Shown: piece after piece, positions 7,962 to 28,437 of the stretch
Layout: each line of letters opens with the position of its first letter
Position numbering within the stretch: the stretch's first letter is position 1
Virus record (IMG/VR): IMGVR_UViG_3300046453_000063
Coordinates: 1-64,000 of that record
DNA from: a virus
DNA: 64,000 nucleotides
Strand: one strand, 5' to 3'
Position numbers and translations under genes: made by a program
The notes under the pieces: generated by a model
Told to the model about the DNA's origin: nothing
What the model saw: only the letters and a program-made list of their open reading frames with translations
The model's database searches: none

Positions 7962-8693
7962 GTGATTATGATAACACATTTCGGGGTTAATATACGCAAT
8001 AGAGAGGGCGAATTAAAATTAACCGCCGACAATTATGTGAGAAAAATTGATAAAGATGATGCCATTTTGTCAGAAGAAGTAAAACTCAAGTTGGATAGTG
8101 TCATGGCACGATTCAATCTTAATATGAACGACTTCAAGTCATTGTCCAGAGACAAATTTAATGAAGAACTAGATAAGTTCGTAAGCTCAAATAAATTTTA
8201 TGAAATTAAAGATCTTAATTCTGTGGCTGGTATTTACGGGCACTATGTTATGGTCTTGGATGAGTATTGTCAAGTTTACATAGGAACTTCTAGTCGTAAC
8301 GATGGCATAAGAGCAAGGATACCTCAACACTGGAGAGAGAAAATATCCTTAGTTCGTCTTGATAGGGAGGAGTATGGTTCTCTACATGTAGATAGCTTTA
8401 GAGCTAAGGATACTACAAGGATATTTGTGTGGCGTGATGATGCGTGTACTTTTTTCGAGGATTACACGTTAAACGAGCTTTGGGAAGGTAGACTGGTTGC
8501 CCAATTTCCTATAGATTATTGCCTTAATTCAGTGATGATGGATATACCAAAAGAGTTTTTCCATCAGAGAATGAGAGATCGGGATTTGAGAGACTTAAGA
8601 GTGTACGGAAAAAGCTGGCGAACGGAGAAGTTAGACCAACTCAATCAAATGACTCCCATGATTACACAGAATCGTGTAACTGATGGCAAATAG
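7962..8693 (+). CDS. GIY-YIG nuclease family protein
   Basis: GHYVMVLDEYCQVYIGTS...R motif. Confidence 0.6.
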   Translation: MIMITHFGVNIRNREGELKLTADNYVRKIDKDDAILSEEVKLKLDSVMARFNLNMNDFKSLSRDKFNEELDKFVSSNKFYEIKDLNSVAGIYGHYVMVLDEYCQVYIGTSSRNDGIRARIPQHWREKISLVRLDREEYGSLHVDSFRAKDTTRIFVWRDDACTFFEDYTLNELWEGRLVAQFPIDYCLNSVMMDIPKEFFHQRMRDRDLRDLRVYGKSWRTEKLDQLNQMTPMITQNRVTDGK

Positions 8694-9020: not shown

Positions 9021-9488
9021 GTAAAAAGAAGAGAACATAATAGACAAAAACAAATAGAGGGATACTCAAAGCATTATTATAGAAATAATCCTGAAAAATT
9101 TAAAGAATATCATATTAATAGATATAATAATAAAAATCATGAGATAGATATTGAAGAGTGGAAAGATTGCTTGAATTATTTTAAATGTGCTTGTGCTTAT
9201 TGTGGGACAACATGGGAAGAACATTTTTCAAAACATAAACAAGATTTACACAAAGAACATGTGGTATTGAACGGGAAGAATAATTTATCTAATTGTGTCC
9301 CAAGTTGCCGAGAGTGTAATAGCGCAAAATCAACATTGAGTTTTAATAATTGGTATAATAAAGACAATCAAATTTATTCTAGAATAAGATACATAAGGAT
9401 ATATGAATGGCTAAGATCAGACTATAAAAAATTCATAAAGCAAAATTTAACCACAAGGAGATTAAAACAATGTCAAATAAAAAACTAA
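9021..9488 (+). pseudogene. 5'-truncated HNH endonuclease, paralog of 7099..7710
   Basis: Frame is open from 9021 with no RBS or start. KNHEIDIEEWKDCLNYFKCACAYCG...HKEH...NCVPSCRECNSAK aligns with the 7099 protein but lacks its N-terminal Zn finger. Confidence 0.7.
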
Positions 9489-26763: not shown

Positions 26764-26790
26764 AAATATTTGGGGGAATGGTATTTATAA

Positions 26791-28437
26791 ATGAAATGGA
26801 AACAAAAAACACCCGTTATTTCATTTGAGTCATATGACAATACATATTCTAAACTTGCAAAATTGAATGGAATCACAAACATTGATCAATTTCTCAACCC
26901 ACTATCTAATGTAATTTGCGATTCTTATCTGCTTAAGAACATTGACGCACTAGCAAGCCGAATTATTCTTGCTATTCGGAATCGTGAGCCTATTACGATT
27001 ACTGGCGACCCTGATTAGCCAGGCTATGATGGTGTAACTTCGTTGGTGACAATGTATAAATATCTACTTAATTTCACTGACGAAGTGTATTATGTATGTA
27101 ATGAACGATCCGAGGGTCATTCGATAAATGGACTAGTTGAAACAATTCCTGAATCAACCAAGGTTCTAATTGCTGTAGACAGTTCATCAAATGATGTTGA
27201 TACGATGCAATTACTATCATCTAAAGGAATTGACTGTCTAATCATCGATCATCATACAGTTACGGTAGACAATCCCTATGCAATACTAGTTAACCCGCAA
27301 CAAGCCAATGACCCATATCCAAACAAAAATGCTTGCGGTGGTTTACTCGTCTTCAAGGTCTGCCAAGTAATTGATGATTACATGAATACATATTATTCAA
27401 ACAAGCTCGATGATCTTCCTGGATTTTCTCTTATGGCCGATATGATGTCTATGTTGGAATTAGAGAACAGATATTACGCAAAACAGTCATTAAAGAATCT
27501 ACATCATGCAGGACTCAAAGCACTGTTCCAGGCAATGAATTATGATCTAACAAACCTATCTGCAACAGACTTCTTATACGGTGTGAGTCCTGCTGTAACG
27601 GCTGCTACACGGGCAGATAATATCCAGTTAGCAATTGACTTCTTAATGTGCGTAGATGACTCAGACGACATCAAGGGACTTGCCAAAGAGTTGGTTAAGG
27701 CCAATGAGAAGCGCAAAGAAGTTCAGGCCGAAGCTTTGCAACGATTGAAGCCACTCTTTGATGAGTCGAATAAAGTAGTAATTGTTGTAGATCCGTCATT
27801 GGGATCTGGGATGAATGGATTGGTCGCGCAAGAGTTGTCTAGAACATTTAACAGGCCAGCAATTGTACTTGGTTTTAGCGATGAGGGAGACGTGTTGAAA
27901 GGCAGTTTCCGTGGATTAGAGGATTTCTCAATGCTAGAACTGCTGGATAATTGCGAAAACACAATTTATGCTGCTGGACATAATGCTGCTGGTGGCGTTC
28001 AGTTGCCCAAATCAAACCTTGAGCAACTCCAACGAGAGTTAAATGAAAAACTGATCAACTTTGAGGCAGATGACTCTCTGTATTATGATCTAGAATTCAA
28101 CTTGTCTGACGTTAATGAGAATCTAGTCAACTATTTGAATGAGTTTTACCGGATTACAGGCAATAAATTCAAACAGGGCAAATTCCTCATTAAAGGATTA
28201 TTCGTCTCAGATAAGAAACTCATGGGTAAATCCGCAAACACAGTTAAAGTTGATTGCGATAAGATTCAATTAATGAAGTTTAAAACCGATGAGCAATACT
28301 TTAATTCTGTTCCGGTATTTTCTGAGATTGAAGCCATTGGATCACTAAACATCAACGTTTGGAAAGTTTACAAACCTAAGTTTAAAATTACTAAGACACT
28401 GCAATTATTCATTGATGATTACCGAGAAAATATTTAA
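26791..28437 (+). CDS. recJ: RecJ-like ssDNA exonuclease (DHH/DHHA1), interrupted in frame by TAG at 27016
   Basis: GDPD*PGYDG motif I, AVDS, IIDHH, ADMM, GSFR, AGHNAAGG; ORFs 26791..27018 and 27043..28437 are in the same frame. Confidence 0.85.

Follow-up and report, generated by a model that had tools for sequence, protein, structure and literature searches.

The stretch of DNA considered here (the window, 64,000 nucleotides) comprises positions 1 to 64,000 of an IMG/VR virus record that is 163,994 bp long and bounded by direct terminal repeats. The record belongs to a Paenibacillus-type phage of 164 kb, and none of the deposited phages matched the window at the DNA level. The plus strand of the window carries a gene of the RecJ/YorK type in which a TAG codon sits between the second and the third aspartate codon of motif I (DxDxDG), with nine bases that are extra relative to the motif (positions 27004-27033, plus strand: GGC GAC CCT GAT TAG CCA GGC TAT GAT GGT). 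The features of the locus, some of which are candidates named according to the interpretation developed below, are the following:

26772 to 26793, plus strand: Shine-Dalgarno-like GGGGGA and ATG start codon; intact orthologues have ATA, ATC or ATT there
26791 to 28437, plus strand: RecJ/YorK-type gene, coding gap included; both halves share one frame
26791 to 27018, plus strand: open reading frame with its stop codon, 75 aa, in the same frame as the open stretch running to 28437
26791 to 27015, plus strand: recJ-like part 1, 75 codons from the ATG to the candidate take-off codon (…ITGDPD); dN/dS 0.02-0.09 versus relatives
27010 to 27023, plus strand: possible mini-hairpin CCTG / loop ATTAGC / CAGG; minimum free energy (MFE) -4.3 kcal/mol, take-off codon partly in the 5' arm
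27013 to 27015, plus strand: candidate take-off codon GAT, Asp, the second aspartate (D2) of DxDxDG; GAY precedes TAG in all alleles of the clade
27016 to 27024, plus strand: putative coding gap of 9 nt, TAGCCAGGC; identical in the related contig L144, absent from intact orthologues
27016 to 27018, plus strand: stop codon TAG, the first triplet of the gap, which would occupy the A site
27016 to 27026, plus strand: palindrome TAGCC-A-GGCTA, present in the window allele
27022 to 27024, plus strand: GGC, candidate near-cognate landing triplet; GAT or GAC at the equivalent position in all other alleles
27025 to 28437, plus strand: recJ-like part 2, from YDGVTS… to the stop codon, with the rest of the DHH domain, DHHA1 and RecJ_OB; synonymous variation starts right after the gap
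27028 to 27030, plus strand: GAT, alternative and fully cognate landing codon; the product would miss YD, hence the invariant first Asp would be out of register

The product obtained by reading through the stop codon contains the Pfam domains DHH (2e-12), RecJ_OB (7e-8) and DHHA1 (3.5e-5). Its identity to RecJ/YorK-type exonucleases from large phages of Bacillus, Alicyclobacillus and Brevibacillus amounts to 33-39%, and its best phage matches are annotated as RecJ/YorK-like. Judged by these sequence similarities, the gene is a RecJ/DHH-family single-stranded DNA exonuclease of the SPbeta YorK type. A preliminary description, made from the DNA alone, had noted that motif I is interrupted by a TAG-containing insert of 9 nt with both halves in one frame, and the sequence and its open reading frames agree with it. 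Motif I is intact only when the gap is skipped: deletion of the 9 nt yields, as had been pointed out, GDPDYDG, the very motif encoded by L012, the closest orthologue that lacks an interruption (SGDPDYDGVTSL).

The gap is not an assembly artefact, since the same 9 nt are present in L144, an independent contig from a different sequencing run, which shares 84.8% nucleotide identity with the window over 1.7 kb. This contig was obtained by a protein search with the N-terminal fragment; a scan of IMG/VR with the fixed 9-nt pattern revealed no additional 9-nt allele there. Neither is the interruption unique to this genome, as at least 17 further lineages share it. In the comparison of the window with L144, pS is 0.44-0.54 and dN/dS is 0.05 for the N-terminal and 0.08 for the C-terminal part; for five other relatives, with synonymous sites close to saturation, both parts have dN/dS values of 0.02-0.09. 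Synonymous differences directly abut both edges of the gap (GGC GAC CCT versus GGA GAT CCT on the 5' side and TAT GAT GGT, TAC GAT GGA or TAT GAC GGC on the 3' side), which shows that the flanking codons are translated in their respective frames.

These data bear on the view that the gene has recently been inactivated and is now a pseudogene, or that it encodes two polypeptides, i.e., a 75-aa protein and a re-initiated C-terminal part. Gene callers indeed split the gene in two, and the landing codon of the window allele is degenerate. Against decay and division stand the dN/dS values of 0.02-0.09 for both parts, including the comparison of the window with L144 and their shared allele, which do not fit neutral evolution of the halves, and the retention of the gap in at least 17 lineages. 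Re-initiation would moreover lack a start codon ahead of the conserved YDGVTS: neither in the window nor in the alleles of its relatives does an ATG, GTG or TTG separate the gap from the YDGVTS codons, the first such in-frame codon past the stop being TTG 27043, which lies 3' of them. Division into two proteins would also sever the metal-binding motif. We therefore consider a pseudogene or a pair of separate proteins very unlikely.

Reassignment of TAG to a sense codon can be ruled out, because tRNA-Lys and tRNA-Ala are the only tRNAs that the genome encodes, with no suppressor tRNA among them, and because TAG serves as terminator of 38 of the 204 long open reading frames. A genome-wide scan for candidate stop-hop layouts elsewhere gave 34 raw candidates. 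Those with a distant downstream start (window positions 8691, 9018 and 11212) showed no Pfam sign of a split gene and were taken as ordinary adjacent genes. At window positions 9021-9485, an HNH-domain open reading frame follows right after two in-frame open reading frames parted by single stop codons (TAG 8691 and TGA 9018); no evidence was found that these two are one gene.

Relatives were sought by protein and pattern searches of IMG/VR, GTDB genomes, JGI/ENA metagenomes and a 5.8-billion-protein collection; the protein database contained 17 other N-terminal fragments of 75 aa. The hosts of the gap-bearing genes are Paenibacillus species (P. polymyxa, P. odorifer, P. spiritus and others), in which the loci lie in prophage-like regions of low GC content (0.34-0.36). 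Eight gap alleles were found at one site:

8 nt, TAGCAGAT: L149
9 nt, TAGCCAGGC: window and L144
9 nt, TAGTTAGAC: L061 (take-off GAT, landing GAC)
9 nt, TAGTTTGAC: L142 (take-off GAC, landing GAC)
10 nt, TAGTTAGGAT: L002, L003/L143 and L007/L150
10 nt, TAGTTAAGAT: L004
10 nt, TAGTTGGGAT: L140, L141, L146, L147 and L151
10 nt, TAGTTCAGAT: L148

The preliminary description had proposed to look among recJ homologs for a stop codon and a short insert with low dN/dS on both sides, and relatives with gaps of 8, 9 and 10 nt under strong purifying selection are what was found. The three lengths place the downstream part in the +2, 0 or +1 frame. In all eight alleles, TAG immediately follows an Asp codon (GAY), and in seven of the eight (all but that of the window, with GGC) the last triplet of the gap is again an Asp codon, followed by T(A/T)Y GAY GG; the interior of the gap varies freely, and the gap of the window has diverged from that of L002, the closest relative, at roughly the rate expected of neutral sequence. 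Intact orthologues of the same well-supported clade encode GDPDYDG (L012) or GDPDFDG (L013, L014 and L019), and for every allele a skip from the Asp codon to the last gap triplet restores DPD(Y/F)DG. No single frameshift or readthrough event accounts for all three frames, and it is from the restoration of the motif across these frame relations that we infer a hop from the Asp codon to the last triplet of the gap. To some extent, the match between the triplets on either side could be a by-product of the origin of the insert.

The most probable explanation, to which we assign a probability of about 0.7, is that one full-length RecJ/YorK-type single-stranded DNA exonuclease (~545 aa) would be made by short-range programmed translational bypassing, or "stop-hop". 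Peptidyl-tRNA(Asp) would reside on GAU 27013-15 in the P site while the slowly decoded UAG is in the A site; the anticodon would unpair, the mRNA would slide by 9 nt, and the tRNA would re-pair at the last triplet of the gap, so that decoding would restart at UAU and give …ITGDPD-YDGVTSL…. In the relatives the landing triplet would be GAU or GAC, in the window GGC, with a central G.U wobble to the anticodon GUC. Since this pairing needs a G.U, the hop is probably inefficient in the window allele, and a fraction of the ribosomes may land on GAU 27028 instead. Programmed ribosomal bypassing had been the proposal of the preliminary description, and the allele series with its Asp take-off and landing codons, together with purifying selection on both halves, lends it support.

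In-frame readthrough would require that a near-cognate tRNA occasionally reads UAG; in the product, GDPD-X-P-G-YDG, motif I would be longer by three residues. As this demands, the window, L061, L142 and L144 have in-frame gaps, and the CCAGGC common to the window and L144 is compatible with a coding constraint. However, the 8- and 10-nt alleles of close relatives could not be read in this manner, none of about 100 homologues has an insertion between D2 and D3, and there is no suppressor tRNA, all of which makes readthrough quite unlikely. A +1 programmed frameshift of the kind occurring at the shifty stop of prfB was rejected as well, because the window gap is in frame and because in the 10-nt alleles the +1 frame meets its own TAG immediately 5' of the last triplet, i.e., before the landing codon; sites of the shifty-stop type occur solely in L038 and L083.

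Removal or alteration of the 9 nt at the RNA level before translation, by a micro-intron or by editing, would likewise restore the motif for all gap lengths, and it has no direct support. We know of no bacterial or phage mechanism that excises 8-10 nt, which counts against a micro-intron. A stop codon after the take-off site and a cognate last triplet would be expected of ribosomal re-pairing but not of splicing, and the absence of a match to any Rfam family and of a conserved structure likewise disfavours processing of the RNA, which we regard as highly improbable. Self-splicing and bulge-helix-bulge (BHB) introns were rejected on account of the gap length of 8-10 nt, the lack of an Rfam match at E<=1 and the lack of a significant fold.

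The bypass proposed for the window allele has a peculiarity of its own, since this allele, shared with L144, is the only one with a non-Asp last triplet. A canonical product requires mismatched (G.U) re-pairing at GGC, and a cognate GAT starts 3 nt past it. A landing on this codon (GAT 27028, GAC in L144) would follow if TAGCC-A-GGCTA folded; the product would read ITGDPD-GVTSL, two residues fewer than the ITGDPDYDGVTSL junction. It is the first fully cognate codon past the take-off site, DPDG would retain a DxDG core, and the palindrome is exclusive to the window allele. The hairpin is weak, however (-1.7 kcal/mol), every other allele has its landing codon directly 5' of T(A/T)Y, and the first Asp (D1) of the motif, invariant in about 100 homologues, would be lost, so that we consider a predominant landing at GAT 27028 unlikely. 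The sequence comparisons thus tentatively favour landing on GGC over landing on GAT 27028, which drops the invariant Asp, and over readthrough, which adds three residues between D2 and D3. Most simply, the window allele would be derived from a 9-nt allele ending in …GAC by an A-to-G change, and among the three possible changes at that base G alone would leave the triplet able to pair with GUC, the Asp anticodon, by way of a G.U in the middle position. The identity of the allele in two lineages that differ at about half of their synonymous sites argues that it is functional rather than decaying.

In all intact members of the Paenibacillus-phage clade, an ATA codon (in some ATC or ATT) is present two codons before a conserved Trp (L012:2276, L013:2276 and L014:2276; also L017, L019-L022, L024-L027 and L036). 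A strong Shine-Dalgarno sequence (AAGGAG) precedes it by 9-10 nt, and several of the genes have an in-frame stop codon just before the start; from these features and the conserved N-terminal residues it follows that the intact genes start on a non-canonical codon. All gap-bearing genes have ATG or TTG at the equivalent codon. This would be consistent with a low-output gene in which a stronger start offsets an inefficient hop, with the proviso that, for the correlations of both the start codon and the endonuclease described below with the gap, the clade members are not phylogenetically independent.

With respect to RNA structure, the preliminary description had named two hairpins, both of which are present in the window; the T4-like UAGC/GCUA element turned out to be weak (-1.7 kcal/mol), confined to the window allele and not conserved. 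The element of predicted MFE in the window is CCUG/CAGG (-4.3 kcal/mol), whose loop contains the stop codon and whose 5' arm includes a portion of the take-off codon. Mini-hairpins of the type CCUG(A)/(U)CAGG are predicted in five of the eight alleles (-3.6 to -5.9 kcal/mol) and broken in L003, L004, L061 and L142. Folds of 56 nt around the gap were not better than those of shuffled sequences (z-scores -0.6 to +0.4), which gives no sign of a conserved stimulatory structure, and an Rfam search found no family. The 3' half of the gap tends to complement CCUGA at the take-off site (reverse complement UCAGG), as observed in the window (27010-27023), L002, L140, L148 and L149. This complementarity could reflect a small take-off hairpin or be a trace of the origin of the insert, e.g., by snap-back repair; a take-off stem-loop in the recJ gap family is at present an unproven hint from folding predictions.

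In several relatives (L007/L150, L061, L149 and L151), an open reading frame of ~303 aa for a LAGLIDADG-type homing endonuclease is located immediately upstream of recJ and overlaps its start. These endonucleases are mutually only 38-58% identical, which indicates that the association with recJ is old. In a tree of the C-terminal part, L015 (= L007, with gap and endonuclease) is the sister of the intact L012 (support 96/88) within an otherwise intact subclade, and blastn showed the endonuclease gene to be a clean insertion of ~906 bp between the upstream gene and recJ relative to L012. Within about -125 to +25 nt around the gap, the identity of L007 to its intact sisters falls to 67-77%; this dip is suggestive of a co-conversion tract in L007, based on too few sites for more. 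L016 has kept the gap with an empty endonuclease site, and the endonuclease gene is absent beside recJ in the window and six other gap-bearers as well as from all of about 25 intact clade members. A tblastn search for endonuclease remnants next to the recJ gene of the window found none, and the endonuclease may either have been lost from this genome or never have been there. Endonucleases of the same family are also encoded upstream of very distant recJ-like genes, one with an 11-nt gap of its own (L080) and three without a gap (L082, L095 and L127). Most likely, by analogy to T4 mobA/gene 60, the gap would have arisen, or would persist, as a change that shields the DNA of a highly conserved motif from the endonuclease.

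A survey of about 110 recJ-like loci revealed further interruptions within the same five codons. L080 contains GAT CCT TAAGTACG CCT GAT GGT, an 11-nt gap with matched CCT/CCT codons over TAA. In L126 (positions 420-440), a distant recJ-like gene on a 1.4-kb contig, GAT TA GAT GGT constitutes a 5-nt gap with matched GAT/GAT codons over TAG after the third Asp of motif I, corresponding to a +5 hop. In L083 and in L038 (Paenibacillus sp. Marseille-Q4541), both at positions 2480-2510, one extra T creates CCC TGA C in motif I, which by its sequence is a classic shifty-stop site for +1 frameshifting; at one and the same codon, the closely related L080 and L083 show solutions of 11 nt and 1 nt, respectively. 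The slow-to-decode codon at the A site would be TAG in all alleles of the clade and TAA, TAG or TGA in the independent cases. Two other kinds of irregularity were seen in the survey. L112 (positions 125-150) has an in-frame TGA where homologues have Cys (GDYDVDG-C), which might be explained by a nonsense mutation, by an error or perhaps by selenocysteine. In L070-L072 (e.g., L072:2440-2510), the recJ-like C-terminal part starts with RIDADG two codons past a TAG and has no recognisable in-frame N-terminal part; such genes may be split in some other way or have lost their N-terminal end.

To our knowledge, natural bypassing is known from very few systems, namely T4 gene 60 and its relatives, the mitochondria of Magnusiomyces and probably the Hau3 terminase. 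The 50-nt bypass of T4 gene 60 with its MobA cassette reportedly goes back to work of Huang in 1988 and Bonocora in 2011, the Hau3 terminase bypass is said to have been described by Smith in 2013, and synthetic stop-hops reportedly date back to Weiss in 1987.

In T4, the 50-nt gap and MobA belong to a single mobile cassette in which the gap blocks nicking by MobA, and some phages that have lost mobA keep the gap; bypassing there depends critically on a take-off stem-loop whose 5' arm contains the take-off codon (10.1101/2022.08.31.505936). The recJ gap family resembles this system in the UAG directly after the take-off site, in the matched take-off and landing codons for one tRNA (in seven of the eight alleles; GAU/GAC pairs also occur in T4-like elements), in the interruption of the metal-binding region of an enzyme of DNA metabolism, and in the homing endonuclease gene just upstream in relatives, with some genomes having the gap without the endonuclease. 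It differs in its gap of 8-10 nt instead of 50 nt, in lacking a conserved UUCG-tipped take-off stem-loop, a mini-Shine-Dalgarno sequence in the gap and a known nascent-peptide signal, in an endonuclease of the LAGLIDADG rather than the HNH type of MobA, in a host gene that is not split into two genes, in its Bacillota hosts and, in the window, in a non-cognate landing triplet.

For the large terminase of the Streptomyces phage Hau3, a bypass of 10 nt (7 nt in a prophage) has been described, with the junction determined by mass spectrometry in E. coli (PMC10732093). As in recJ, a short non-coding block (7-10 nt) lies in an essential and conserved phage gene whose flanks are contiguous in insert-free relatives; in Hau3, however, a hungry UUA sense codon is the trigger, with proposed regulation by the bldA tRNA, and no link to a homing endonuclease has been reported, whereas the recJ gap has a stop codon and, in relatives, the LAGLIDADG gene. 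The byp elements of Magnusiomyces capitatus mitochondria are 27-55 nt long and have an unassigned sense codon in the A site (PMC10732093, PMC5009743). Like the recJ gaps, they are short inserts in conserved genes bypassed between matched codons; unlike the recJ gaps of 8-10 nt with a stop codon in the A site, they are mitochondrial, longer and have a sense codon there. In E. coli, engineered and inefficient stop-hops of +5, +6 and 9 nt between matched codons around a stop codon have been obtained (PMC5009743), and the +5 allele of L126 and the 9-nt recJ alleles share their layout. A review of 2016 knew of no in-frame stop-hop in nature and described shorter equivalents of gene 60 as long anticipated (PMC5009743).

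Our literature search found no paper describing the recJ gap, which would represent a new short-gap, stop-triggered and LAGLIDADG-linked form of translational bypassing, the core bypass being supported by the allele comparisons. A broader possibility, which we put forward tentatively as one more likely to be wrong than right in its full extent, is that recJ motif I is a hot spot for endonuclease-driven mini coding gaps of 1, 5, 8, 9, 10 and 11 nt which ribosomes of Bacillota hop without elaborate signals, including the GGC landing via G.U, tuning of the start codon (AUA to AUG/UUG) and stop-hopping that immunises the DNA of the motif. If this were true, landing could persist on a non-cognate GGC via a central G.U, the switch from AUA to AUG/UUG would show that initiation is tuned to offset a low-efficiency hop, and natural stop-hopping would be a general, evolvable route by which selfish endonucleases make the invariant DNA of catalytic motifs immune. 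Current annotation presents genes of this kind as two hypothetical open reading frames or as pseudogenes. With many natural alleles in three frame relations, carried by prophages whose hosts can be cultured (Paenibacillus polymyxa, P. odorifer and P. spiritus), the minimal requirements of hopping (gap length, identity of the landing codon and tolerance of G.U) become directly testable, and the idea derived from T4, that a bypass shields conserved DNA from a homing endonuclease, would by analogy be widened to another endonuclease family and another bacterial phylum.
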